From: Phycisphaeraceae bacterium
GTDB lineage: Bacteria; Planctomycetota; Phycisphaerae; Phycisphaerales; Phycisphaeraceae
Assembly: GCA_963674705.1 (NCBI GenBank)
Contig: OY771506.1
Coordinates: forward strand, 1,120,001-1,184,000
DNA length: 64,000 nt
Reading direction: 5' to 3'
A program made the translations under genes and the position numbers. Positions 36,927 through 51,967 of the stretch are shown here, in pieces. The notes under the pieces were generated by a model that saw nothing but the letters and a program-made list of their open reading frames with translations, was not told the DNA's origin and did no database searches. Every line of letters starts with the position of its first letter. The first letter of the stretch is position 1.

Positions 36927-37110
36927 TTTAGTCACAGATGAACACGAATGAATACAGATAAGAGTTTAGAAGAAGCATCCGCAGATTGCGGTGATTGAGC
37001 AGAATAAAAAAGAATCATTTATGAAGTCTTTTAATTCGGGTCATTTGCGCAATCTGCGGACAAAACCTCTTATTCTTATCCGTGTTCATCCGTGTTCATC
37101 CGCGGCTAAA
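36927..37110. repeat. Family E inverted pair (MITE-like), overlapping the lpxK stop
   Basis: TTTAGTCACAGATGAACACG..ATCCGCAGATTGCG vs CGCAATCTGCGGA..CCGTGTTCATCCGCGGCTAAA. Confidence 0.82.
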
Positions 37111-38168
37111 ACCGCTTTTAATAAGTCGTCTATTGCATCGGCACCTTCCAGGAAGCTCAGGCCGAGGGTCGGGCGGAGGATGGGTGGATCGGTGTTTTCA
37201 TGTTGAAGCAATTCGGCCCACTTCACCCAGTCTTTTTCCGTGGTTACTACGGCATCGGCGTTATGTTGTTTGGCCTTTTTCAGGATGCGCTGGATGTCGT
37301 TCGTGGTGTAGGTGTGGTGGTCGTCGAAGGCATCGATGTGCAGGAGCTTGCCGGCGGCGGATTCGAGCATGCGTTTGAAAGCTTCGGGGTTGCCGATCGC
37401 GCAGGCGGCGGTGACTTGTTTGGCTTGCAGGTGGTCGGGCGGAAAAACGGGGTCTGACCCCGTTTCGGTAAAACCGGTCCATGTGGTGGCGGCGTGGGCC
37501 AGGGGTGGTTTATTGGTGAGGGTCTGGATTTGTTGATCGAGTTGCGAGAGCGCCTCGGCGGAAACCTGGTCGCATCTTGTGATGATGATGGCGTCGGCGC
37601 GTTTGAGGTTATGTTTGGATTCGCGCAATAGGCCTCTTGGCAACAGGTGATCGAAGCCGAAGGGTCTGGTAGCGTCGATCAGGACCAGGTTGAGGTCGCG
37701 GGCGACGCGGCGGTGTTGGAAGCCGTCATCTAACAGGAAGATGGTGGTTTCGGGATGGTCAGCGAGGACGCGGCGGGCACCTTCGACGCGATCGGGATTG
37801 GGCATGACGGGGACGGCGCTGCCGAGTGCGTTTTGGATTTCCTGGGCTTCATCACTGGTGGCCCCCTTCTCACCGGCCATGTAACCGCGCATGAGGACGG
37901 CGGGCTTGTGATTCAGGGCAATTAAGCGGCGGGCGAGTTCGATGACCATGGGGGTCTTGCCGGTGCCGCCGGTGGTGATGTTGCCGACGCTGATGACGGG
38001 GCGGTCGAGCTTGATGGTCTTCTTGATGCCGAGGTCGAAGAGCTTGTTGCGTGTGGCGGTGGCAAGGTGGTAGCCGGGCGTGAAGATAGCGAGTCCGAGG
38101 CGTGTGGCGGCGGCGGCGGGGTCTTTAGCGTGGCCGGACATGATGTCGTAGAGGCGTTGGTGGTTCAT
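37086..38168 (-). CDS. lpxK: Tetraacyldisaccharide 4'-kinase
   Basis: VISVGNITTGGTGKTP, RGY, LLDDGFQH, LLPRGLLRE, TTEKD. Confidence 0.95.
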   Translation of the reverse strand: MNHQRLYDIMSGHAKDPAAAATRLGLAIFTPGYHLATATRNKLFDLGIKKTIKLDRPVISVGNITTGGTGKTPMVIELARRLIALNHKPAVLMRGYMAGEKGATSDEAQEIQNALGSAVPVMPNPDRVEGARRVLADHPETTIFLLDDGFQHRRVARDLNLVLIDATRPFGFDHLLPRGLLRESKHNLKRADAIIITRCDQVSAEALSQLDQQIQTLTNKPPLAHAATTWTGFTETGSDPVFPPDHLQAKQVTAACAIGNPEAFKRMLESAAGKLLHIDAFDDHHTYTTNDIQRILKKAKQHNADAVVTTEKDWVKWAELLQHENTDPPILRPTLGLSFLEGADAIDDLLKAVLAADEHG

Positions 38169-38201
38169 GGGCCGGGTGCCATGATACGTAGGAGAAGGGA
38201 T

Positions 38202-38330
38202 TTAGCCACGAAAAGGCACAAGAGACACAAAAGGGCTGGTAAATGGAAGCGGATGGATGCTTGGGGATCCGGAAGCGTAATTGATATAGATTCTTAATTT
38301 TGTGTGTGTTTTGTGGCTTTTCGTGGCTAA
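38202..38330. repeat. Inverted pair TTAGCCACGAAAAGGCACAA / TTGTGGCTTTTCGTGGCTAA
   Basis: Related to family E termini (TTAGCCAC..). Confidence 0.75.
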
Positions 38331-38343
38331 CCGGGTTGAGTCA

Positions 38344-38940
38344 TTATGCCGGTTCGATGCCGAGGTTTTTGAGGGCGGGGATGAGTTTTTGCATGGGCAG
38401 GCCGACGACGGTGGTTTCGTCGCCTTCGACGGTGAGGGGCCAGCCGGCGTCGCGGCGGTCGAAGAGGTTGTATCCGCCGGCCTTGCCTTTCCACTGGTTG
38501 GAGTCGAGGTATTCGTCTAGCTGAGCGCTGTTCAGCTTGCCGAGGGTGACGCGTGCTTCGTCGGCGAAGGCGTTGGGCTGGTCCATGCTGTCGGTGAGTA
38601 GTGCAACCCCTGTGATGACGGAATGGGTGTTGAGCTGGAAGTGCTGGATCATGCGTCCGGCGTCTTCGCGGTCGACGGGCTGGCCGATGAGCTTACCGTT
38701 GGAACCGACGCAAATCGTGTCAGCAGATAGGATTACGACGTCCGGCGTGGCTGCTTCCCGCAGGCTGAGGGCTTTTTCGATCGCGAGCTTGGCGGCGAGG
38801 GTGCTTGCGGAGCCGGGGTGGTCGTTATCCGGCTGAGGCGGATCGTGGAACGGCGGCTCGGTCTGCTCGAACGTGAAGCCGGCTTCGGTAAGCAATAGCG
38901 CGCGTCGCGGGGATCGGCTGGCGAGGATGAGGTTTGGCAT
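38344..38940 (-). CDS. maf: Maf-family nucleoside triphosphate pyrophosphatase
   Basis: LILASRSPRR, SADT, H.VITGV, KAGGY, VVGLP. Confidence 0.92.
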   Translation of the reverse strand: MPNLILASRSPRRALLLTEAGFTFEQTEPPFHDPPQPDNDHPGSASTLAAKLAIEKALSLREAATPDVVILSADTICVGSNGKLIGQPVDREDAGRMIQHFQLNTHSVITGVALLTDSMDQPNAFADEARVTLGKLNSAQLDEYLDSNQWKGKAGGYNLFDRRDAGWPLTVEGDETTVVGLPMQKLIPALKNLGIEPA

Positions 38941-39163
38941 GGGGTCTGGGGTCTAGGGTCCGGGGTCTGGCAAGACGGATGCGGTATCGCTTGCCGGTGG
39001 ATAGTGTAGCGGGGGTGTTGGGGTCTGGGGTTTAGGGTCCGGGGTCTGGCAAAGCCAATGCGGCCGAAGCTGTGAGGTGGTTTGTGTGGGTGCCGGGCTT
39101 ATGGCACTGCCGGTCTCCCACTTCCGACCAGACCCTAGACTCCAGACCCTAGACCCAACACCT
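38941..39163. repeat. Degenerate GGGGTCT heptamer tracts, two direct and one inverted
   Basis: 38941-38968 and 39020-39047 (both followed by GGCAA); inverse CAGACCC-type tract 39129-39163. Confidence 0.75.
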
Positions 39164-39316: not shown

Positions 39317-40729
39317 GTGCGAACCATTGCGATCATCAATCAGAAGGGTGGATGCGGCAAGACGACTTGCTCGATCAATCTCGCCGCCTCCCTGTCCGCC
39401 AAAGGCAAGCGCACCCTGCTGGTCGATATGGACCCGCAATCACATTGCGCGATGGGGTTGGCTGTGCCGGATGCACAGATCGACAAGTCGATCGCGGACA
39501 TGTTGCGAGTCGGTCTTGACGGGTCGCTTGCGATGTCGGAGATCACTTGGCAGATCGCGCGTGGGTTTGACCTTGCGCCGTCGTCGATCATGCTCGCTGG
39601 GATCGAGGCCCAACTGAACACCGCGCCGGACAAGGATCGGCGACTGGTGCAGGTCCTGTCGACGGTGCAGGACCATTATGATTTTTGCATTATTGACTGC
39701 CCGCCATCGATCGGGCTTTTGACGTTTAACGCGCTGCGTGCATCGGACGAGGTGTTGATCCCTGTCGAGACGGGATTCTTCTCGATGCAGGGTGCGGTGC
39801 GGCAGCAGCAGACGATCCGGATGCTGGCAAGGCGTGCGGGGCATCACGTGCGTTTCAGCGTGCTGGCGACGATGTATGACGTGCGTACGAAGCTGGCGCG
39901 TGAGATTTTGAGTGAGCTTCGGCGGCACTTCGGCGAAGACCTTTTGCCGATCGTGATCAACTTCAACAGCAAGCTGAAGGAAGCGGCGAGCTTCGGTCAG
40001 CCTATCACGGAATACGACGCGGCCAGCCGGGGCATGCAGGATTTTGAACGGCTGGCGGACTGGCTGTTGGCGAACCCGCCGGCACCGATGGTGTTCCCGT
40101 CGCAGGGTTTTGACGGTGAGCAGCCGATGCAGCAGCCCGTGGTGCAGAGCCAGAGCATAAACCCGGCGATGAGCCGGGCGGCGGAGCTGGTGGAGCGTGC
40201 CCGTGCGTTATCGACGCGGACCGCGGAATTGTCGTCGCGGCTGGCCAGTGATGAAGATGCACAGGCGGAAGGTTTTGCGCCACAGGCTCCGCATATTCCT
40301 GCGATGCCAAGCCCGCAGCCGTCGCCACAGTCTGAACAGGCGCCCGCACAAGCGCCGATGTCGAGTCGGCTGGCTCATGTGGAGCCCGGGGCGAGTAAGC
40401 CGGTGGTTCACGAGGTGCCGGACAGTTTTGAGAAGAAGCTGGCCGGGCTGTTTGGTGCCCGGCATACGGCCCAAGGGCTGCTGTTTATTCAGCCGGACAC
40501 CAAGGCGAGACAGGTCGCGATCGCGGGTGACTTTAATGGCTGGGACCCGGCGAGCACGCCGTTGAAGCGTGATTCGAACCTGGGAGTCTGGCAGACGTGC
40601 GTACCGGTGCCGCCGGGCCGATACCGCTACCGGTTGGTGGTGGATGGGCACTGGGTGCAGGACCCGTACAACAGTTATGTCGAGTCGAATCCGTTCGGCG
40701 AGTTGAACAACATCGTGGTTGTCGCATAG
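39317..40729 (+). CDS. ParA/Soj-family ATPase fused to C-terminal glycogen-binding (CBM48/AMPK-beta-like) domain
   Basis: NQKGGCGKTT, DMDPQ, IIDCPP, TMYDVRT; P/Q linker; VAIAGDFNGW..GVW..PGRYRYRLVVDGHWVQDPYN..NPFGELNN. Confidence 0.9.
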   Translation: MRTIAIINQKGGCGKTTCSINLAASLSAKGKRTLLVDMDPQSHCAMGLAVPDAQIDKSIADMLRVGLDGSLAMSEITWQIARGFDLAPSSIMLAGIEAQLNTAPDKDRRLVQVLSTVQDHYDFCIIDCPPSIGLLTFNALRASDEVLIPVETGFFSMQGAVRQQQTIRMLARRAGHHVRFSVLATMYDVRTKLAREILSELRRHFGEDLLPIVINFNSKLKEAASFGQPITEYDAASRGMQDFERLADWLLANPPAPMVFPSQGFDGEQPMQQPVVQSQSINPAMSRAAELVERARALSTRTAELSSRLASDEDAQAEGFAPQAPHIPAMPSPQPSPQSEQAPAQAPMSSRLAHVEPGASKPVVHEVPDSFEKKLAGLFGARHTAQGLLFIQPDTKARQVAIAGDFNGWDPASTPLKRDSNLGVWQTCVPVPPGRYRYRLVVDGHWVQDPYNSYVESNPFGELNNIVVVA

Positions 40730-40819
40730 GCTTTGTTGTATCCCACGGAGGGACCCGGGGGTTCGCATGCCATGGAGGGCGGCGAGGAGAAGTACACGAA
40801 CAACCATCGGCGGTCAGTC

Positions 40820-42727
40820 ATGGACGACACACGCACGCAACAAGCCTTGGACGAGTTGGCCGATCTGTTTCTCACAGGTCAGGGGCCGAAGTCTGCATCG
40901 GCTCAATCCGAGCCGGGTTCCCCTTCTGCTATTGATGATGAAACGGACGGTTTGAGCGGTCCTGCGCCGATCCGGCTTGGGCCCAAGCTGCGGTCGACGG
41001 CTGCGCCGCGTCCGGTTCAGCCGGTTGAGCAGGACGAGTCGGATCTGGACGAGACGCCGTTGCGTCTGCATACCGACGACGATGATGATGAACCGGTGGG
41101 CTCGATCGGTATGGATGAAGAAGATGAGTACGAGGTGTTTGAAGACGACCGTGATGCGCTGCTGGAAGAAGTAGAGCACGACGAGTTTGAAGAAGCCTCG
41201 CCCGGTTATGCCGTGGCGGTTGAGGCGGTGATCCTGGGGAATTTGCCGGGATTGAGCGGGCCGTGGTTGACGCAGTACGCGCAGTTGCTGGCTCAGCAGG
41301 AGGGGCCGGTCGCGATCCTGCATGTGGATGACGACCTGATCGACCTGGAACTGGTAGAACCGACCAGCCAGCAAGGCAGCAGCCGGGGCGTGTCGCTGCG
41401 GATGGCTCCGGGCGGCGGGAAGCTGGACCCGGTGACGGTGCTTGAAGCATTACTGGATTCAACGGACAGCGCGCCGGGGACGATCCTGGTGCATCTTGAT
41501 CCGCAGAATGATGAGCAGGGGCTTTCGCGTGCGTTAATGATCGAAGACTGGACGCTGATGAGCGGCGCGGATGACCTGGCGGTCGTCGGCGGGTACCGCA
41601 TGCTCAAGACGATGGTCGAGCAGGACCCGGCGGTCGCTTCCAAGCGTGTCGGGCTGATGGTCATGGGCTCGGACCCGCAGGTCAGCCAGGAAGCGGCGCG
41701 GAAGTTCCAGACCGCGGCCCAGAGTTTCCTGAATACGCCGGTACAGTTGCTTGGCTGGCAGAAACAGATGGTGCCGGTGAACCTGCGTCATCTCGGGCGG
41801 TTCGAGGATGTGGATTCGGCGTGGCCTCGGTTGGCGGACTGGTTCGATGCGTACGCGGCGACCGAGCCGATGGTCGTGGATCAGCCGGTGATCCAGGAAG
41901 AGCCGATCGAGCAGCCGGTGTATCGATCGACGGTCGTGCGTGAACCTAAACGTGAAGTCGAGCCTGAACCTGTCAGCGAGGTGGAAGTCGAGGAGTTGAT
42001 CGAGCAGGCAGAGCCGGAACCGATCCGCATGCCGGAGCCGGTGATCCGCAGGCCGCTACCGCGATTCGAGCCGAGATCGCGACCAGTTGCGCCGCCTGCT
42101 GCTGAGCAAGCAGAACCCGAAGTCGAAGAAGTAGAACCGCAGCCGGTCGCGCGTGAACCTGAGCCGCAGCCGGTTGAAGCGGCAACTCAACCCGCGCCAG
42201 AACCTGCGCCGCAGCCCGAACCTGAACCGGTCGTGCAGCAAGCGCCGCAGCCGGTCGCTGTTCCACCGTCGGTCGAACCCGAATACGAAGCGGAAGAATA
42301 CGAGATCGAAGAGCCGGACCTCGTTGAACTGTTGATGGCTGGTCCCGGTGCTGTGCCGGGCGGGATCGCGATGGAAGCGCGCTGCCCGCATCAGCCCAAT
42401 ACGCAACTCATGCTCGATCAGGCCGGCCGATTGCACCTGCTGTATTACCACGACTCGGAAGAATCGGGTCTTGACGGTTTGCAGCCGGCGATGGTCGATC
42501 TCTTGCAGGCCCGCAAGTGGGTGCATGAACATCTGCAACTGTTGCAACTGACCCAGCGCCAGTTGAAGTTCGATACCGATGCTGAACCTGTTTTACACCT
42601 GTTTACCGATCGCGCGGACTGGGGCACAGCCCTGGTGATGCGTGTCGGCGGATCGTTAAAGCTTCACCTGCTTCAGGCCGTCGAAGTCGGCGGCGAGGTG
42701 GCGTGGTTCTGCACACCCTTGAACTAA
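40820..42727 (+). CDS. Acidic, Pro/Glu-rich hypothetical protein with degenerate MinD/FlhG-like core
   Basis: Likely start MDDTRTQQALDELADLFL; acidic tract; ADDLAVVGGYRMLK..RVGLMVMG..AAQSFLN..LLG resembles the FlhG/MinD C-terminal half; no Walker A. Confidence 0.7.
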   Translation: MDDTRTQQALDELADLFLTGQGPKSASAQSEPGSPSAIDDETDGLSGPAPIRLGPKLRSTAAPRPVQPVEQDESDLDETPLRLHTDDDDDEPVGSIGMDEEDEYEVFEDDRDALLEEVEHDEFEEASPGYAVAVEAVILGNLPGLSGPWLTQYAQLLAQQEGPVAILHVDDDLIDLELVEPTSQQGSSRGVSLRMAPGGGKLDPVTVLEALLDSTDSAPGTILVHLDPQNDEQGLSRALMIEDWTLMSGADDLAVVGGYRMLKTMVEQDPAVASKRVGLMVMGSDPQVSQEAARKFQTAAQSFLNTPVQLLGWQKQMVPVNLRHLGRFEDVDSAWPRLADWFDAYAATEPMVVDQPVIQEEPIEQPVYRSTVVREPKREVEPEPVSEVEVEELIEQAEPEPIRMPEPVIRRPLPRFEPRSRPVAPPAAEQAEPEVEEVEPQPVAREPEPQPVEAATQPAPEPAPQPEPEPVVQQAPQPVAVPPSVEPEYEAEEYEIEEPDLVELLMAGPGAVPGGIAMEARCPHQPNTQLMLDQAGRLHLLYYHDSEESGLDGLQPAMVDLLQARKWVHEHLQLLQLTQRQLKFDTDAEPVLHLFTDRADWGTALVMRVGGSLKLHLLQAVEVGGEVAWFCTPLN

Positions 42728-42816: not shown

Positions 42817-44637
42817 TTAACGACGGCGCAGCAGTGTCACGCCGCACATCAACATAAGTACTGCCGAAACGGGTTCGGGAATGGTAGTTATATCGGTTGC
42901 TGGGGGTGTGCCGACGTTCCAGTTGTTGAGTACGAGGTCGAGGTCTTCGAGGAAGATGTATCCGTCCCCCGACGCGTCGCCGGCTGACGAGTCGCCCGGA
43001 TCGGTGTGGGTAAGCCAGTTGTTCAGGATGATCTCCAAGTCTTCCATGCCGACGAATCCATCATGATTCAGGTCGCCGGTCAGTCCTAATTCGAAGCGGA
43101 AGATGGCTTCGTTGCCGTCGTTTATTTCAGCGTTGTATGTCAGTTGACCAAGGTCATTGATCGCGGACTTCCAGCCATTTTCCGCTCCCGCGCCTTGGTG
43201 CATGAAAAGGATATCGATCCCCCAATGTCCTTCCAGCGCGACCAGGGACAACTCCCCGTTCGGCTGGCTGACCCAGATGCTTTCCAGCGTTGCGCCATCG
43301 GGGCCGATCAGGTTGTTCTCAAAAACAATTTGTCCTGATCGGTTCATGATGGGTTCACGATAGAACTGGTTGAAGTAAAAGCCGGGGTCGGCGCCGGGCG
43401 CCGGATCACCTGCACGGACGATTAATTCCAAGGTGCCGCTACGGTTTGACCACAGGCCCGAATTATTGGTTTCATCCGTACCCGGCCCGCTAAGGCCGGC
43501 AAAGAAGGCGATCCGCCCGCGTTCATTGAGAACGGGTTCGTACAGGGCAAGCTCCCATGGGTTGGCCGGGGCGAACACCTGGCCGGGATCGGCTCCCGGG
43601 GCCTGGTCGCCCTCGCGTACTAACAGGACGTCGGCAACCGTGCTTGAAGACCAGATGCCTTCATCGTTGGTTTCATCTACACCCTCCCCGGATAATCTGG
43701 CATTAAATACAACTTGCTCGTAGTGGTTGAAACGGACCGATGAAAAGTAATCTGCGAAAACAGCGGACGTACCCGGGGCCGGGTTCCCCGTGCGTGCGAT
43801 CAGGTCCAGCGAACCCGAACGCTCGGCCCAGATGCCGGCGCTGTTGGTATCGTCGATGATTTCCAATTCTTCCGGGGCGGTGAGTGAAGCGCTGAACGCG
43901 ACTTGCCCCGACTGGTTGATGATCGGATTATCGGTGAACCCATCGAAGACAACTTCTTGCTCGGTTCCCGGCGCGTGGTTGCCTGCCCGGGCTACGACCC
44001 ATAACGAGCCGACCCCGCCCGACCAGATACCCATGTAGTTCGTCGCATCGACTCCCGGCCCTCCCAGCCTGCCTCGGAAGGCGGTTTGGCCGTTCACATT
44101 GGTTGCGAGCTTGTAATAGTTCGGGCTAAAAAACAGGCTTTTGAAGTACACACCTTCACCGGTGCCGGGGGCGTGATCGCCATCGCGAACAAGCAGGTCG
44201 AGTGAGTCATCACGCGCAATCCACAGGCCGCTGTCGTTGGATGAACTGATGTCCGGGCCGATCACCGACGCAACGAAGGCGACCTCATCGCCGTTGTAGA
44301 CCACCGGATCACTGATAAGCTGGAAAGTGATATCTTCATCTTCATCGGGGGGTGATTCACCACGCAACACCGTCTTCTCTAAAACCCCACCGCTGGTCGA
44401 CCACAAACCGAATTGGTGGCCGGTGTAAGTTGCCTTGAACGAGACTTCCCCGGTATTGCTGATTGACGGGGTGAGAAACCCGGTGAACTCAACCTCCGGA
44501 ACGCCCGGCACAGCGCGACCGGTGTAGGCAATCACTTCGCCCGGGTAGGGAACCGCGTGTGCCTCTTGCCCACTGCCTGTACCGATACAGAACAGCGCCA
44601 GGCCCATCAATGTCCTGCGAACGGATGTGTTTAACAT
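42817..44637 (-). CDS. PEP-CTERM protein with NxxGxxAF repeats and dockerin-like domain
   Basis: Repeated NxxGQVAF..GIW..R.G..APG units; GDLNHDGFVGMEDL..GDASGDG; IPEP tail; start chosen at MLNTSV. Confidence 0.88.
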   Translation of the reverse strand: MLNTSVRRTLMGLALFCIGTGSGQEAHAVPYPGEVIAYTGRAVPGVPEVEFTGFLTPSISNTGEVSFKATYTGHQFGLWSTSGGVLEKTVLRGESPPDEDEDITFQLISDPVVYNGDEVAFVASVIGPDISSSNDSGLWIARDDSLDLLVRDGDHAPGTGEGVYFKSLFFSPNYYKLATNVNGQTAFRGRLGGPGVDATNYMGIWSGGVGSLWVVARAGNHAPGTEQEVVFDGFTDNPIINQSGQVAFSASLTAPEELEIIDDTNSAGIWAERSGSLDLIARTGNPAPGTSAVFADYFSSVRFNHYEQVVFNARLSGEGVDETNDEGIWSSSTVADVLLVREGDQAPGADPGQVFAPANPWELALYEPVLNERGRIAFFAGLSGPGTDETNNSGLWSNRSGTLELIVRAGDPAPGADPGFYFNQFYREPIMNRSGQIVFENNLIGPDGATLESIWVSQPNGELSLVALEGHWGIDILFMHQGAGAENGWKSAINDLGQLTYNAEINDGNEAIFRFELGLTGDLNHDGFVGMEDLEIILNNWLTHTDPGDSSAGDASGDGYIFLEDLDLVLNNWNVGTPPATDITTIPEPVSAVLMLMCGVTLLRRR

Positions 44638-44765
44638 GGAAAGCCCCCATTCGATAGATGCTTGCCGGATAAACCCCGGCGGTGTAATACCAAGCCGATT
44701 GAACATCGGATCTATAAAATTGACGTTTTTAGTCTATCAAAGCATCGTCTGGATACAAGACAAAT

Positions 44766-47700
44766 TCAGCCGAACACCGGCTTCTGACCATGACGTCTCT
44801 GTATCAACCACAGATTTGTCATAGAGAATATCCCGAGTACGGCCGGTTCGGGGATATTGGCGACATCGACCGGCGGTGGTGTGCCGTTGTTCCAATTAAC
44901 GAGGATGATGTCCAGGTCATCGAGGCCGACGAAGCCGTCGCCGCTGGGATCGCCCAAGTTCCACGCGCCGGCGGTGACGTTGGTGTTCCAGTTCTTGAGA
45001 AGGATATCCAGGTCGTCGAGGCCGACGAAGCCGTCGTTGCTCAGGTCGCCTGCGAGCGTGGAGATCACTTCGAGGATGACTACCGAGCTGGTGTTGGTGA
45101 GTTGCCATTTCTGGTCGTATTCGGCGATGTCAGGCAGGCTGATGTTGTTCGGTGAATAGATGATCCCGCCGTCGGCCGAGAGGATGGTGAAGCTGTCGCC
45201 CGCGGAGGGTAAGAAGTCGTCGATCAGTGAAACACTCAGGTCGCCGTTGAGATCGGCCGAGTTGGTCACGTGGATGTGGTCGTACTCGGTGTCTTGTGTG
45301 ATGCCGCCCAGTTCGATCTCGAGCGTGCCGTCGTTGAAGGTGTAGTTCCCGTCGATGGTGGTTAAACCCGCCGACGATCCCGGCGAGAGGGTGCCGCCGT
45401 TCTGCAAGAGGTCGCCGTAGAACGTCTGGACGTGCAGGGTTCCGCCCGTGAAGCTGAAAAGGCCCGTGGCGTTATAGAAGCCGGGCGCGGTGAATGTGCC
45501 GTCGGTGAGGTTGATGGTACCGCCGTTGATCTGGAATTGGCCTCTTGCGATAAACGAAGCGCCGCTATTGATGTTGATTGTGCCGTTACTGATGACTTCG
45601 GTGTAGTCGTTGCCTGTGGTGAAAGCGGCGTTGTTCTGCACGTTCAGGATGAAGCTGCCGCCGGTGTCGGACCCGACACTTAACAGTGCACTGTCACCCT
45701 GTGTGATGTTGGTGTTGTCGCCGGTCGCGGTGAAGCTGCCGTTGACCATGTACCAGTTGCCGCCGCCGGTCATCTTGGCGCCGTTGCGGACGACGGCGCT
45801 GGCGCTGCCGCCATTTGCGCCGAAGAGGCTTGTGGTGGAGCCGGTGATGTTGAGGTTGGTTCCTGCGCCGTCGACGATCAGTGTCCCGGTTGACCCGTCG
45901 CCGAACACGATGCGGTCGGTATTCAGGTCGGCGGCGGTGTTCAGCTCCAGTATTTTGCCGTCACTGAATTCGATGCCGTTGAAGTCGGTGAGGTTGATCT
46001 GCGCGTTCGTGGTGGCGGTCAGTTTCTTACCCGTGGCGAGATTGAGGACGGCGTTATTGCTGCGTGTGTATGAACCGCCGGTGAAGGTGGTGTTGTCGTT
46101 GAGGTTGAGCGAGCCATCGGTGTGGTTGAGCGTAACGCCGGTGAAGTTGATCGGGTCGGCGGTCGGGGAGAGGTCGTTGTTGGCGTTGATGTGTCCGCTG
46201 TTGACGGTGAAGGCGCCGCCTTCGAGGGTGAGTGTGCCGTAGGTGCTGATGCCGTCGCCGCCCGCCAGCGAGATCAGTCCGCTGTTGAGTGTGAGGGAGC
46301 CGCCCGTGATGTTGATGGTTCCGCCGTTGCCGCCTATGACGTTGGTGTTGGCGCTGGATCCACCGTGGCCGCCGTCGACGCTGAGTGTGCCGCCGTTAAT
46401 CATGACGGAGCCTGCCGAGAGATGGATATCGCCGCCTTGTCCGCCGGCCCCGCCGAGGTAGTTCGCGTTGGTTATGTTCGCGGACGGTCCGCCGTTACCG
46501 CCGTCGGCAGAGAGGGTCGTGCCGGCGTTCAGCGTGATGTCGGCCCCGCTGAGATTGATCGTGCCACCGCTGCCGCCTGTCCCGCCGCGACGGCTGGTGA
46601 CAAGCGCCCTTTGTTTTCCACCCAAACCACCGTTGACGTTGAACTTCGATGTGCCCTCGAGCGTCAGCACACCGCCGGCGAGGTTGGCGGTGCCGCCTTG
46701 TCCGCCGTTGCCCGCGTTATCACTGCTGTTACTCGGGTAGTCACTGCCGCCGTACCCACCATCTAGGCGCACTTCGGAGGCGAGTGTGAGTGCGATGTTC
46801 CCGCCGGCATTCATGGTGAGGGTGCCGCCGGTGCCGCCCGCCGCGCCGTCGGCGTGTGCGGGATCGGACGAGCCGGCCCAGCCTTGTCCGCCGCTGAAGT
46901 TGATCGTGCCCCCGTCAATCATCCATGTACCGGCCGTGGTGACGGAGCCGCTGGTAGAGCCGTCCTGGTCTACCTCGGCGGACGGTGTCAGTGCGCCGAA
47001 CTGGCCGAAGGTGTTGACGTTCAGCTTTCCGTTGACTGCGATGTTTACCGTTCCGGTTGTAGAGGTGAAAAAGTCGCCGAAGTTTTGCACGTTGATGGTG
47101 GCATTGTTGGTCGCTTCCGTGCCACCGAGGGTGAGGTTTGCCCCTTCGCTCTGGATCAGCGTTGAGCTGTTGATATTGACGGTCGCGGTCGAGTCGGTGG
47201 CGGCGTAGGTGTCGTCGGCGAGGTGCAGACTGTCGATGGTCATGGCTGAGGCGGTGCTCAGGTTGATCGTGCCGGTTGAGCCGCTGCCCTGTGAAGCCAG
47301 GAAGATATCACCGGAATGGATGGTGGCCTGAGCGATATCGCTGATGGTGATAGACGCGGTACCGCCGTTGAGCCCCCAGAAAGTGGGCGAAGCATCGACG
47401 GTGAAACTCGAACCGAGGCCGTCGATGGTGACGGCGCCGTTGCTGGTTACCTCGTCGTAGGCGGTGAAGCTGCCGGCGGTGATGTTAAGGGCGCCGCCGC
47501 TATTGATGGTGGTGAGGCCGCTGACCGTAGTCGAGCCGGTGTTGTTGAATACGGCATCGCCGGTCTGTGCGATGGTTAAGGGACCGGTCACTTGCAACGA
47601 AGCGGCCTGGTTGAAGGTTGCGGCCGCGCCGCCGACGTCCGTGCCGAACTTCAGGCTTGAGACCGTGTTGGTGCCGGTCGGTGTTGCGGCGGTGAGCGTA

Positions 47701-48170
47701 AAGGCGTCCGCGGGCGCGATCAGATCGACGGCCCAGGCGCCGGCCTGGTTGTTGCCGGATTCATACATCCTCAGCCGGTAGGCATCGATGGGCAGCGGAT
47801 CGGGATTCAGCGCCGTTCCCGTGGGTTGTGTCCAGGCAATCAACGAGTCTACGCCGGATGCATCGTTGCTGTACCCGTGCAAGACGGGTGTGCTGTCGGT
47901 GAGTTCCAGGACCGAATCGATGCCCCCGGATGTAATGGCGTCGCCCGCGGCGTTGGTTCCTCCGTTGCCGGCGAAGGTAATGAACCGCATGTCTTCACTG
48001 CCGCCAACCGTTCGGGAGAGCGAGAAGTTGAAGTCGTGCATGTCGCCGGCGGCGATGAAGTCTCCCTGCAGCGAGAAGTAAGCCTGCTGCGCGGCGGCAT
48101 GTGTACCAATCAAGCCTGCTAAAAGGAAGCACCCACGATTAACAAGCCGATATTTTTTTGCGTACCCCAT
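44766..48170 (-). CDS. Large Gly-rich beta-repeat PEP-CTERM protein (DVUA0089-like N-terminus, dockerin-like C-terminus)
   Basis: GGTNAAG..GGIDSVL..WAVDL N-domain; GGxGGxGG beta-helix-like repeats; LSPGSSAG..YD autotransporter-like segment; GDLSNDGFVGLDDL x2; IPEP. Confidence 0.88.
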   Translation of the reverse strand: MGYAKKYRLVNRGCFLLAGLIGTHAAAQQAYFSLQGDFIAAGDMHDFNFSLSRTVGGSEDMRFITFAGNGGTNAAGDAITSGGIDSVLELTDSTPVLHGYSNDASGVDSLIAWTQPTGTALNPDPLPIDAYRLRMYESGNNQAGAWAVDLIAPADAFTLTAATPTGTNTVSSLKFGTDVGGAAATFNQAASLQVTGPLTIAQTGDAVFNNTGSTTVSGLTTINSGGALNITAGSFTAYDEVTSNGAVTIDGLGSSFTVDASPTFWGLNGGTASITISDIAQATIHSGDIFLASQGSGSTGTINLSTASAMTIDSLHLADDTYAATDSTATVNINSSTLIQSEGANLTLGGTEATNNATINVQNFGDFFTSTTGTVNIAVNGKLNVNTFGQFGALTPSAEVDQDGSTSGSVTTAGTWMIDGGTINFSGGQGWAGSSDPAHADGAAGGTGGTLTMNAGGNIALTLASEVRLDGGYGGSDYPSNSSDNAGNGGQGGTANLAGGVLTLEGTSKFNVNGGLGGKQRALVTSRRGGTGGSGGTINLSGADITLNAGTTLSADGGNGGPSANITNANYLGGAGGQGGDIHLSAGSVMINGGTLSVDGGHGGSSANTNVIGGNGGTINITGGSLTLNSGLISLAGGDGISTYGTLTLEGGAFTVNSGHINANNDLSPTADPINFTGVTLNHTDGSLNLNDNTTFTGGSYTRSNNAVLNLATGKKLTATTNAQINLTDFNGIEFSDGKILELNTAADLNTDRIVFGDGSTGTLIVDGAGTNLNITGSTTSLFGANGGSASAVVRNGAKMTGGGNWYMVNGSFTATGDNTNITQGDSALLSVGSDTGGSFILNVQNNAAFTTGNDYTEVISNGTININSGASFIARGQFQINGGTINLTDGTFTAPGFYNATGLFSFTGGTLHVQTFYGDLLQNGGTLSPGSSAGLTTIDGNYTFNDGTLEIELGGITQDTEYDHIHVTNSADLNGDLSVSLIDDFLPSAGDSFTILSADGGIIYSPNNISLPDIAEYDQKWQLTNTSSVVILEVISTLAGDLSNDGFVGLDDLDILLKNWNTNVTAGAWNLGDPSGDGFVGLDDLDIILVNWNNGTPPPVDVANIPEPAVLGIFSMTNLWLIQRRHGQKPVFG

Positions 48171-48238
48171 GCCGGATAATCTCCACCTTTTCTATGACAC
48201 CACGTGTTTGAGAGCGGTGGTGTTTAGTTCGATGGCGA

Positions 48239-51200
48239 CTAATTATATTTATATTTGTGATGCCTGCGGCAACCCAGCGCGAAGCCGTTAAGCGCCAGGA
48301 TAATTGCGGTCCCGGGCTCGGGGATGCTGGTGGTGTTGATTGGCGGCGGTGTGCCGTTGTTCCAGTTGTTCAGGACGATATCTAAATCGTCGAGCCCGAC
48401 GAAGCCATCGCCGCTGGGATCGCCCTCGGTTAACGCGCCGGCGGTAACGTTCTGGTTCCAGTTGTTCAGGACGATATCCAGGTCGTCGAGGCCGACGAAG
48501 CCGTCGTTGTTCAGGTCGCCGGCGAGTGTGGAGAGCACGTCCAGCACAATGGCAGCGCCTGTATTGGTGATCTGCCACGCCTGGTTCGATGCGGAGATAT
48601 CGGGCAGGTTCAAGAGATTGAATGCGTCAATGATCCCGCCGGCGGCGGTGAGGATGGCGAAGCTGTCGCCGGGCAAGGTGGTGAATCCGTTGATCAATGA
48701 GACGTTCAGTTCGCCGTAGAGTTGGGCCATACCTGTTACATGTACGTGGTCGTACCCGGTGTCCTGTGTGATCCCGCCGATTTCGATATCGAGCACGCCG
48801 GTGTTGAAGCCGTAGTCCCCGTTGATGGTGGTCAAGCCCGCGGACGAACCGGGGGAGAGCGTGCCGCCGTCCTGTGTGAGTGTGCCATGGAAGGTTTGGA
48901 CATGCAGTGTGCCGCCGGTGAAGTCGAACGTGCCGCCGGCGGCGTTGTAGATCGAATCCGCGGTGACGGTTGCGCCGCTGTCTATCGAGACCGAACCATT
49001 GGCGAGGATATCGAGTGTTCCGTCGACCTTGAGTTCGCCGTTGTTCATCACATTCACCGTTCCATTGTCGACGCCGAGGCCCTGCTTGGCCCACCAGCGT
49101 GAGCCTGCGCCGGTGATATCAACGTTGCCGACCCTGGCGGCATCAAACGTAGAACCGACGCTGGTTGTGAAGCCCGCGGCGGTGACCTGGCCGCCGCCGG
49201 TGATCAGCAGGTTGGCAGAAGAGCCCCGGCCGACGTCGGTGTATTGGGCGGTCAGCGATTGGCCCGCGCCGATCGTCGTGGTTTTAGGTGTCGCTGAAAC
49301 CAGGTCGGCGTTGAACACACCGAAGTTCACGAAACCATTCCAGACAAGATTGGATCCGACGCCTTGCAGTTCGTTGACGCTAAGCCCGCCGCCGGACATC
49401 AGGAAGCTGCCGCCGTTGATGTTGACGGTGTCGGCTTCGATCTGCGCGGCGCTCGATACGTCGAACGTACTGCCCGTGTTCAGCGTTGCGGTGCCGTTTA
49501 TATACACCCGCGTGCCTCCTCCGGATGCGTTGAGTTTGCCCGCGCCGTTGAGTATGAGATCGCCTTTAACGTATAAGTCGCCGCCGGAGTTCACATTCAC
49601 GGTACCGGTAGCGTTGATCGTGCTGTCGCCGGTGCCGGTGGTGAAAGTGGCGTTGCTACTGATGTTCAGTTCGGCCGTTCCGCCGACGGCGTTGCCGACA
49701 ATCAACTGTGACGCACCGGTCTGGGTGATGGTTGATCCGGCGTCGGTGACGTTGACGATGCCGGTGCCGGTGTTGGTATCGAAGTGAGTGATCCGCAGGT
49801 TGTTGAGTGTGAACGAGCCGCCGGACTCCACATTGACGGTGCCGGAGGTCGAGGGCGATGTCCCGCCGGTGGACGCGACATGCAATGAGCCGGAATGAAT
49901 CGTGGCTTCGGCGTTATTGCGGACGGTTAAGTTGCCGGTTGCGCCGTACGCACCGACGTCGCTCAAGCCTGCAAGAGAATCGGTATTAATGGTGAGTGTT
50001 GATCCGCTGCCGTCCACAGTGATGGTGCCGTTTGAAGCCGAGCCAAGCCCGACATTGATCGGATTGGAAAAACTCACATCCGCGCCGGATTCCACTTTGA
50101 TCTCGCGGCTACCGTTGATGCTGTAGAAGATGCCGTTGTTACCGCCGTTGAGCGTGACCTGGGCGTCGTTGGAAGCGGTGAGTGTTTTGCCAGAGGCGAG
50201 TCGGAAGCCGTTGGTCTGAGAGTCGATCGTGCCGCCGTCGACGGTGACGTTGCCGTTGGCGTTGAAGATGCCATTGGTGTTAACGGTGACAGTGCCGGAG
50301 GGGTTGATGGCGATGTCGCCGGTGCCAGAGTTGAAGACGCCCGAGTCGTTGACGTCAAGGGTCGCGGTGCCCGTGCCGGTTCCGCCGACGGTGAGTGTGG
50401 ACGCGCCGATCTGTGTGAAGGTCGAGCCTGTGCCGGTGACGGTAACTTCACCTGATGCAGCTGAGCCTGTCGCGATGTCGAGGCGGGTGAAGGTGATGTC
50501 GCCGCCGGATTCGACGTTGATGTCGCCGAAGCTGTTGCTGTCACCGCTTGATGCCAGTGTGACACCGCCGGCGAGCGCGATGTTGGCGGATGCATTATCC
50601 AGAACATTGAGCGTGGCGGTGCCGCCGGTATTGCCCCAGAAGCTGTTGAACCCGCTGCTGACGGTGAAAGTCGAGCCGGTGCCGGTGACGGTGATCGTGC
50701 CGTCCATCCCGGTGCTGTTGCCGACGCCGAAGAAGCTTTGGTACAAGACATCCGCGCCGGACTCGACGATGAGTGTGGTGTCGTGATTGAAGGAGGTGCC
50801 GGGCGCGTGGGTGAACTGTGCGTTGTTGCGGGCGGTGATGGTTTTGCCATCCGCGAGGTTGAGGGTGCCGCTGGTGAAGTCGATGGTGCCACCGTCGATG
50901 AGGATATCGTCGTCGGCGTCGAGTGTGCCGCCGGTGATGTTGACGGTGCCGCCGCTGTTGATGGTGGTTGGTCCGCCGACGGTGATCTCGCCTTGAGCGA
51001 GGTTGAGTACGCCGTTACCGGTGTTGGCGACAACGAGTGGGCCGGCGATTTCGAGGTCGGTCAGGCCGATGTAGTCGAAGGTGGCGGCGTTGGCGCCCGC
51101 GCCGGTGGTGCCGAACTTGAGTGAATCAAGACGTGAGACACCGCCGGGATTGGCGGCATTGGGTGTGAGTTGCGTAAGCTGCAGTGCATCTGCCGGGCCG

Positions 51201-51682
51201 ATGAGGTCGACGGCCCATGCGCCGACGTTGTTGTTGCCCAGATCACTGAAGGTCAGGCGGTAGTCGTTAGCGACGGGCAGCCCGGATGCAGGCAGTGTGC
51301 CGCCGGACTCAGCGACGCCGGGCCAGGACAACAGCGAATCTAGGGTGGTGTTCGGGCCGAACGCGCCGTCGTCGTTGGATGCAGACAAGCCGGCGCTGAA
51401 GCTGAACAGATCCAGCAGCGAATCGATTACCTGGCCCGTGCCGGGGATGACGTCGCCGGCGGCGTTGGTCCCGCCGCTGCTGGCGAAGGTGATGAACTGC
51501 ACATCCTCGGCCGTTGTCAGCGGTCGGGTCGTTTGGAAGTACATCTCGTGCGTGCCAAGCGCAAAGGTGATTTCACCTTCCACGGAGAAGTAGGCTTGTT
51601 GTGCCAGCGCTTGTCCGGACAAGGACATTGCCAACAAAGTACACCCGCCACGGCATAGCCGATTCGTCAACACGTTATTCAT
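48239..51682 (-). CDS. Large beta-repeat PEP-CTERM protein, paralog of 44766-48170
   Basis: Same N-domain and C-terminal cassette; T5SS-like 'ITVTGTGST' repeats; start MNNVL at 51682 with SD GGAGA. Confidence 0.88.
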   Translation of the reverse strand: MNNVLTNRLCRGGCTLLAMSLSGQALAQQAYFSVEGEITFALGTHEMYFQTTRPLTTAEDVQFITFASSGGTNAAGDVIPGTGQVIDSLLDLFSFSAGLSASNDDGAFGPNTTLDSLLSWPGVAESGGTLPASGLPVANDYRLTFSDLGNNNVGAWAVDLIGPADALQLTQLTPNAANPGGVSRLDSLKFGTTGAGANAATFDYIGLTDLEIAGPLVVANTGNGVLNLAQGEITVGGPTTINSGGTVNITGGTLDADDDILIDGGTIDFTSGTLNLADGKTITARNNAQFTHAPGTSFNHDTTLIVESGADVLYQSFFGVGNSTGMDGTITVTGTGSTFTVSSGFNSFWGNTGGTATLNVLDNASANIALAGGVTLASSGDSNSFGDINVESGGDITFTRLDIATGSAASGEVTVTGTGSTFTQIGASTLTVGGTGTGTATLDVNDSGVFNSGTGDIAINPSGTVTVNTNGIFNANGNVTVDGGTIDSQTNGFRLASGKTLTASNDAQVTLNGGNNGIFYSINGSREIKVESGADVSFSNPINVGLGSASNGTITVDGSGSTLTINTDSLAGLSDVGAYGATGNLTVRNNAEATIHSGSLHVASTGGTSPSTSGTVNVESGGSFTLNNLRITHFDTNTGTGIVNVTDAGSTITQTGASQLIVGNAVGGTAELNISSNATFTTGTGDSTINATGTVNVNSGGDLYVKGDLILNGAGKLNASGGGTRVYINGTATLNTGSTFDVSSAAQIEADTVNINGGSFLMSGGGLSVNELQGVGSNLVWNGFVNFGVFNADLVSATPKTTTIGAGQSLTAQYTDVGRGSSANLLITGGGQVTAAGFTTSVGSTFDAARVGNVDITGAGSRWWAKQGLGVDNGTVNVMNNGELKVDGTLDILANGSVSIDSGATVTADSIYNAAGGTFDFTGGTLHVQTFHGTLTQDGGTLSPGSSAGLTTINGDYGFNTGVLDIEIGGITQDTGYDHVHVTGMAQLYGELNVSLINGFTTLPGDSFAILTAAGGIIDAFNLLNLPDISASNQAWQITNTGAAIVLDVLSTLAGDLNNDGFVGLDDLDIVLNNWNQNVTAGALTEGDPSGDGFVGLDDLDIVLNNWNNGTPPPINTTSIPEPGTAIILALNGFALGCRRHHKYKYN

Positions 51683-51967
51683 CTGAATTGTCTCCGCCCT
51701 TTTGTTCCCAACGGGATGATTGATCACAGTAATGCCGGTGAATCCGGTGCCCCCACAAACCGGCTGAGCGGATTCGAGCAAGTAACGTAATCTACAGGCT
51801 GTCGCCCTCACGGGCCAGCGTTATTTTGTTAAATAATTGTCGGAAAAGGTTTTAGGAGACAAGTGGGTCCGGATACCCGCCCCGACCAACATCTGCCAAA
51901 TCGGCAGCATCCGGTGTCAATTCGGCGTGCAAATATTATTAAAACAAGGGTTTACGGATAAGAACAC

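Follow-up and report, generated by a model that had tools for sequence, protein, structure and literature searches.

Introduction

ParA/MinD ATPases are known to sense the surface of DNA or of membranes, and adaptors connect them to their cargo. In systems such as McdAB, ParC/PpfA and PomXYZ, an orphan ParA-family ATPase is encoded next door to a dedicated partner. Here we describe a two-gene locus from a Phycisphaeraceae bacterium (assembly GCA_963674705.1), found at positions 39317..42727 of a 64,000-nucleotide stretch of contig OY771506.1 (positions 1,120,001 to 1,184,000), which as a whole we call the window. Its first gene encodes a ParA ATPase fused to a carbohydrate-binding module (CBM) of the CBM48 type, and its second a predicted inactive ATPase. 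Gene 1 is likewise an orphan with an adjacent dedicated partner; unlike in McdAB, ParC/PpfA and PomXYZ, however, a ligand-binding domain is part of the ATPase itself, and its partner is a pseudo-ATPase. The class best supported for the pair is that of a housekeeping ParA positioning module, which upholds the view of an orphan positioning ATPase taken in a first-pass annotation of the window. More specifically, we tentatively read the pair as a housekeeping module that serves polarity in motile Phycisphaerae and uses alpha-glucan as a landmark or carbon signal, a reading to which we give somewhat less than an even chance.

Three other groups of proteins invite comparison. Gene 1 resembles Soj/ParA of the ParB-parS systems in fold, signature lysine, catalytic Asp and basic DNA-binding positions, and gene 2 resembles ParB partners in its short N-terminal hydrophobic helix. 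Unlike in those systems, gene 1 ends in a CBM48 and gene 2 contains neither a ParB CTPase nor a helix-turn-helix domain. FlhG and FleN (4rz2, 5j1j) share their fold and sequence profile with residues 130-345 of gene 2, which differs from them in having no Walker A motif, in its added N-terminal helix and C-terminal restriction endonuclease (REase)-like domain, and in its position away from the flhF-flhG operon, which contains the true FlhG of the host. Finally, plant PTST proteins combine a coiled coil with a CBM48. As in these proteins and AMPK beta, the CBM48 of gene 1 is non-catalytic and follows a helical segment, but gene 1 is bacterial and its CBM48 is fused to an ATPase.

The closest description is that of Li, Burroughs and Aravind, whose preprint of 22 October 2026 (10.64898/2026.10.19.760177) catalogues ParA-AMPK1_CBM fusions computationally under the name 'ConB5', so the fusion architecture is not new. 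As presented there, ConB5 variants include one with an upstream single-transmembrane protein and one in which a second ParA and an REase are both inactive, and the rapidly diverging CBM and sporadic distribution are the basis for proposing carbohydrate-triggered immunity; the words 'storage' and 'granule' are absent from the preprint's main text. Our locus shares with ConB5 the C-terminal AMPK1_CBM on ParA and corresponds to the variant with inactive ParA and REase, and the single-transmembrane variant corresponds to three distant loci described below (L131-L133). It departs from the ConB5 account in the preprint's main text in that a single polypeptide contains both dead domains, preceded by a conserved N-terminal helix, and in that the dead ATPase is FlhG-like. 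The first-pass annotation had known of no characterised example; while the architecture has thus been described, no experimental study of a ParA-CBM fusion was found in the literature searched, which was mostly without subscription papers.

Results

Gene 1 (39317..40729, forward strand, 470 residues, GTG start; defined by its open reading frame and Pfam matches) begins with a Soj/ParA ATPase domain (residues 1-255, 39317..40081) that is recognised by PF13614 (AAA_31, residues 1-174, E = 1e-48), best folds and conservation. The Soj/ParA assignment made in the first pass from the motifs KGGCGKTT, TMYDVRT and NSKLKEA is confirmed: these motifs are present, and the domain has the deviant Walker A with its signature lysine, the DxD motif and Walker B (key residues K10, K15, D39, D127 and E222), together with basic residues R190, K192, K219 and K221 at positions that we take to be the DNA-binding ones in Soj numbering. 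Across 123 aligned fusion rows, in which some genomes are counted twice, K10, K15 and D127 are kept without exception and D39 in 121; among the basic positions, R190 is kept in 113/123, K219 in 102/123 and Lys or Arg at 221 in all 123. The AlphaFold model (mean predicted local distance difference test score, pLDDT, 82.6) consists of a Soj-like domain, a 29-residue helix and a beta-sandwich, and the closest folds of the ATPase are the Soj/ParA structures 9a6n, 8ray and 2bek (TM-score 0.87-0.88, 36-39% identity). With a hydropathy maximum of 1.14, gene 1 has no membrane helix.

The C-terminal module had also been correctly recognised. This AMPK-beta-type CBM48 (residues 371-470, 40427..40726) scores above the cut-offs of both AMPK1_CBM (PF16561, 48.0 bits against 26.8) and CBM_48 (PF02922, 36.2 bits against 22.4) over residues 395-469, and its best Protein Data Bank matches are AMPK beta-subunit CBMs (E = 8e-9). 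Of its residues W409, R439, W446, F460 and N464, the four sugar-site residues W409, R439, W446 and N464 align with AMPK beta, where we take their counterparts to be W100, K126, W133 and N150. They are near-invariant (W409 and W446 each in 121/123 rows, Arg or Lys at 439 in 123/123), and both rows without the tryptophans represent one decayed copy, that of genome G202. The sequence and model together show that the ParA active site, the Soj-type basic positions and the AMPK-type sugar site are all intact in gene 1. Between the two domains lies a conserved linker helix (residues 283-311, SRAAELVERARAL, 40163..40249), seen as invariant alignment columns and as a helix over the same residues in the AlphaFold model. 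In the short fusions found in other phyla, a gap in the alignment shows that it is absent. It is likely to be a dimerisation element. This helix, the N-terminal helix of gene 2 and the REase-like fold of gene 2 are features beyond those first noted.

Gene 2 (40820..42727, forward strand) encodes an acidic protein of 635 residues (122 Asp and Glu against 42 Lys and Arg) without a membrane helix. Although its longest open reading frame opens upstream at TTG 40733, the most likely start is ATG 40820, 90 nucleotides past the gene 1 stop, because homologues start at the same MDD motif. No family in Pfam, NCBIfam or ESM Atlas matches it, and the nearest named clusters in ESM Atlas, which are leads only, are MinD/ParA-like (0.81-0.82). 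We found 152 homologues, and partner sequences diverge fast (14-62% identity). The earlier description of gene 2 as a degenerate MinD-like protein encoded 90 nucleotides downstream on the same strand is borne out, and FlhG/FleN-like is the more precise term for a domain without Walker A at residues 130-345 (41207..41854; profile, Foldseek and VIA). A 49-row gene 2 profile matches FlhG 4rz2 (E = 1.7e-9) and FleN, and it matches the host's own FlhG (E = 8e-16) but not the host's plain ParA. The top Foldseek rank for the gene 2 model is again FlhG 4rz2 (E = 1.9e-5), and VIA aligns residues 130-344 with FlhG at Z 11.3 (root-mean-square deviation 4.1, 169 aligned). By profile and modelled fold, FlhG/FleN, each genome's own FlhG included, is the partner's nearest relative. 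Its P-loop position is occupied by GNLPGLSGPW and the P-loop is gone; the domain is predicted to be a dead ATPase. A BcsQ/BcsR-type reading was considered and rejected, with BcsQ scoring below the NCBIfam cut-off and BcsR giving no match.

A Pro/Glu-rich disordered linker (41855..42304, pLDDT about 30-55) leads from the FlhG-like domain to the REase-like fold (residues 496-635, 42305..42724; VIA and column counts). In VIA, these C-terminal 140 residues match REase folds at moderate Z of 8.2-9.7: PaqCI 8em1 at 9.7 (root-mean-square deviation 3.1, 119 aligned) and 2okf and 2vld at 8.2 each. Because no D/E-x-K follows D533, which is kept in 33/49 rows, the domain is predicted to be inactive. At the other end of the protein, the model and a motif table define a helix at residues 4-19 (LDELADLFLT, 40829..40876) as a candidate ParA-docking and activating motif. 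With a profile built from the helices of 30 partners, seven held-out partners and the partner at distant locus L130, which is from another phylum, outscore at least 98.9% of 2752 control N-termini, and in three distant partners LGRG or VRG precedes the helix. The ParB motif of M. xanthus, as reported in PMC12462528, uses hydrophobic residues to bind ParA and R13 to stimulate it. Complex prediction with a ParA dimer (residues 1-256, ATP, Mg) and gene 2 residues 1-350 returned 0.37, 0.01 and 0.01 in separate runs and counts neither way.

The distribution of the pair was surveyed in 121 Phycisphaerae genomes of at least 90% completeness. Eighty-three of them carry the fusion, with one copy seen per genome: 67 were identified by full-length profile match, including a frameshifted copy in G361 and the decayed copy in G202, and 16 were confirmed from fetched loci. 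Three partial cases were scored absent (G310, at a contig end, and G266 and G286, which have no CBM), and the orthologue is absent from the other 35. Gene 2 adjoins the fusion in 58/83 fusion genomes, so the pairing is indeed conserved in relatives, which had been set beforehand as a check; cultured Phycisphaeraceae carry it too (Poriferisphaera matches). In a phylum-wide sample, a close orthologue is present in 28/29 class members, and the other 272 genomes give far lower scores, with one of the two top loci inspected among them being a fusion. Farther afield, fusions occur in Myxococcota, Deltaproteobacteria, Nitrospirota and Omnitrophota, and the 16 fusions that entered a tree group as one clade.

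Among seven distant loci, four have a downstream helix-bearing partner, which combines the helix with a dead FlhG domain in L134, L141 and, weakly, L047, and with an REase-like domain in L130. The N-terminal helix is common to partners of two architectures. In the remaining three, the fusion has a single-pass membrane protein upstream of it (L131:4405-4983, L132:4412-4984, L133:4417-4983), preceded in L131 and L133 by a GH57 glycoside hydrolase gene. The N-terminus of these membrane proteins (YEHLAKIYL) was considered as kin of the gene 2 helix and rejected, since 9-10% of controls score equally high.

In a FastTree phylogeny of ParA domains, seven of the eight multi-member host families form single clades, the exception being one decayed copy, and members of the host's order group together. 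The pattern is that of a vertically inherited core gene within Phycisphaerae. It bears directly on the possibility that the pair is an anti-phage system, in which the CBM would sense carbohydrate products of infection, ParA would multimerise and so limit infection, and the inactive ParA and REase would assist. The architecture fits the second ConB5 variant, with a C-terminal AMPK1_CBM on ParA and an inactive ParA-like domain and inactive REase adjacent; the partner diverges fast, its REase-like fold is known also from defence proteins, and the family is patchy across phyla. Yet 83/121 genomes of the class carry the fusion in what is seen as a single copy, the tree follows host families, and the CBM, with its near-invariant sugar residues, is nearly as conserved as the ATPase (mean identity among fusions 49% against 55%). 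No defence island was seen among the housekeeping neighbours in the 11 loci scanned, and the pair contains no effector domain. PADLOC matches neither gene; of 78 proteins submitted (72 of the 96 called neighbours and six from the window), five match, to NUDIX, ClpX, DnaG, a DeoR regulator and one 230-residue neighbour. Class-wide vertical inheritance and the conserved CBM argue against immunity, which we consider improbable, although the quickly diverging partner and its REase fold still speak for it to some degree.

Several copies are unusual. That of G202 (L044/L226) is decaying, with an altered Walker A, both CBM tryptophans gone, no gene 2 found and a long branch. The orthologue of G266 (L046/L230) ends before the CBM in a genome that keeps gene 2 and FlhA and is without glycosyltransferase family 3 (GT3) and branching enzymes. 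In G361 (L235, C1:1506146-1507499), a two-contig genome, the fusion is apparently frameshifted near residue 141, for which an assembly error is possible. All 12 fusions of family f85 (L209-L224) have NHKGG for NQKGG in the Walker A region.

The fusion tracks flagella. It is present in 77/94 FlhA-positive and 6/27 FlhA-negative genomes (Fisher p 1.7e-8, with kin not independent), and in 46/56 genomes with CheA against 37/65 without. Within family f87 it occurs in 3/3 flagellated and 0/13 non-flagellated genomes; family f7 has neither flagella nor fusion (0/3 for both); and in G286 (L045/L225), where the orthologue ends before the CBM, flagellar genes, CBM and gene 2 are all missing while GT3 and a branching enzyme are retained. 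When 26 of the 27 FlhA-less genomes were rechecked for flagellin and FliP, FliP was found in none and a flagellin-family match in one. The link between fusion and flagella is real in this sample and is not strict, and flagella are a better correlate of the fusion than glycogen enzymes.

Glycogen enters through the CBM48. The first-pass annotation had proposed that the CBM grips glycogen granules as cargo, which ParA would then space or segregate over the nucleoid in the manner of McdAB. The CBM48 is intact, and the genome does encode glycogen synthesis, as had been expected, by a GT3/GH57 route rather than glgABC or glgE: it has a eukaryote-type GT3 synthase (PF05693, 695 bits; G000:C1:1097758-1099692, L009:4758-6692), a GH57 branching enzyme, two phosphorylases and GH77, and glgA, glgB, glgC and glgE have no match above cut-off. 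The class as a whole seems to use this route, because GT3 is present in 60/121 genomes and canonical glgA is above cut-off in 0/121. The fusion is moderately associated with branching enzyme (34/39 genomes with it, 49/82 without), GH57 lies two genes upstream on the same strand in 2/7 distant loci, and of the five fusion genomes without GT3 that were tested, four retain phosphorylase, GH57 and GH13. Loss of the fusion in f87 also fits granule positioning, because GT3 is present there and no branching enzyme was found.

Against granules as cargo, the fusion is independent of GT3 (41/60 genomes with, 42/61 without) and of any synthase (41/62 and 42/59). Synthase and branching enzyme occur together in 26/83 fusion genomes, a recognisable pair being absent from 57/83, whereas G286, G314, G316, G328 and G393 have both enzymes and no fusion. 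Just 1/80 genome loci has an alpha-glucan gene at a distance of up to 6 kb, and G182 (98% complete, two contigs) has an intact CBM and the pair with no match to the seven alpha-glucan families searched. Glycogen capacity may be under-counted, because most of the GT3-less genomes tested have other enzymes and GT4-type synthases and GlgE fall outside the class survey. Of the proposal, the CBM48, the conserved pairing and the host's glycogen enzymes are upheld; with no co-occurrence with synthase and a better correlate in flagella, granule segregation seems to us rather unlikely.

A further alternative is that the CBM fold has been repurposed for a non-glycogen glycan or a protein, and that the module positions another polar structure. 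The pair is retained in four f85 genomes in which neither a flagellum nor GT3 or branching enzyme was found, and in G182, which has no match to the alpha-glucan families searched; in L131-L133, moreover, the partner is a single-pass membrane protein. The conserved residues are nonetheless the glucan-binding set of AMPK beta, in what we take to be its numbering, and we regard repurposing as improbable.

We also asked whether the fusion could be a chromosomal ParA serving an orphan ParB and parS. The nearest folds are Soj/ParA, parB adjoins neither ParA, and both Soj DNA-binding positions are still basic in the fusion (Arg and Lys), the first being Asn in the plain ParA of the host. However, the plain ParAs form a clade separate from the fusions (98% support), whether or not their genome has the fusion, the orthologue is missing from 35/121 genomes, and ParB and parS sites are kept in 5/5 fusion-less genomes tested, so the fusion is dispensable for chromosome segregation by ParA, ParB and parS. 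Gene 2 has no ParB domain, and parB lies far off and is retained in genomes that have no fusion. As first reported, there is no parB or parS nearby, none being found within the window; the host's parB, with two parS sites (G000:C1:1793864 and 1794055, L016), lies about 630 kb from the pair. A segregation role is accordingly very improbable. In the host and in 5/5 other Phycisphaerae examined (L239-L243), no parA adjoins parB, parS sites lie at the 5' end of parB, and the plain ParA is also an orphan.

The surroundings of the pair are those of a housekeeping locus. Divergent lpxK and maf, identified by Pfam, lie outside the module on the reverse strand (37086..38940), and each recurs beside the pair in 13/80 genome loci, all from close relatives. 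Across ten fetched loci and the window, the neighbours include maf, lpxK, aroB, purE, hldE, clpX, dnaG, truD, trpS and nrdR. Between maf and gene 1, a 33-bp direct repeat (38942-38974 and 39021-39053) contains short GGGTCT-like units and occurs genome-wide in just these two copies at up to 4 mismatches. On the opposite strand, 42817-51811 encodes three large secreted proteins, whose C-termini are dockerin-like and of the PEP-CTERM type; the first carries DUF7453, and all three are unrelated to the pair.

Discussion

Our results favour a housekeeping positioning module, a class supported by the family-congruent tree and the housekeeping neighbours. The FlhG-derived partner, the flagellar co-losses and the glycogen of E. 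coli, which one report (PMC12706056) describes as nucleoid-excluded and pole-enriched, lend tentative backing to a polarity role in motile cells that takes its cue from alpha-glucan, though we would still put this below an even chance. In one possible version, which we consider rather unlikely, ParA reads a glycogen deposit through its own CBM and the pseudo-FlhG protein acts as adaptor, making the deposit a landmark for the place or timing of the flagellum. The steps beyond domain content are ones that we infer. ATP-bound ParA dimers would bind nucleoid DNA non-specifically, while CBMs on a flexible linker would bind glycogen or maltodextrin. The partner's N-terminal helix might dock on the ParA dimer in the manner of a ParB peptide, triggering hydrolysis and release, and the dead FlhG domain could relay the asymmetry that this creates to the placement or timing of flagella. 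The REase-like domain may be a DNA binder that does not cleave.

A number of observations weigh against this polarity role. The Fisher p value is too strong, because the link rests on about three independent co-losses (f87, f7 and G286). Five f85 genomes without FlhA, flagellin or FliP, and therefore likely non-flagellated, retain both genes intact, and 15 flagellated genomes (12 in f84, two in f92 and one in f93) are without the fusion. In 25/83 fusion genomes (f6, f86, f94, G202 and G343), all of which are flagellated, no gene 2 was found, and flagellar or chemotaxis genes are absent among the neighbours in the 11 loci scanned. The helix profile scores ParB N-termini no higher than controls, and because it misses the ParB peptides, kinship of the helix to the ParB motif comes down to LGRG or VRG; the gene 2 studied here, moreover, has Gln at the central helix position where 17/30 partners have Arg or Lys. 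Finally, G182 calls into question glycogen as the ligand of the CBM.

Immunity, granule segregation and the polarity of motile cells give differing and simple predictions, and the FlhG origin of the partner, the common N-terminal helix and the co-loss with flagella point to specific mutations and phenotypes. If the polarity role is correct, a storage polymer would be a positional cue for a ParA/MinD system, and a ParA that itself binds alpha-glucan would link the storage of carbon to cell geometry.

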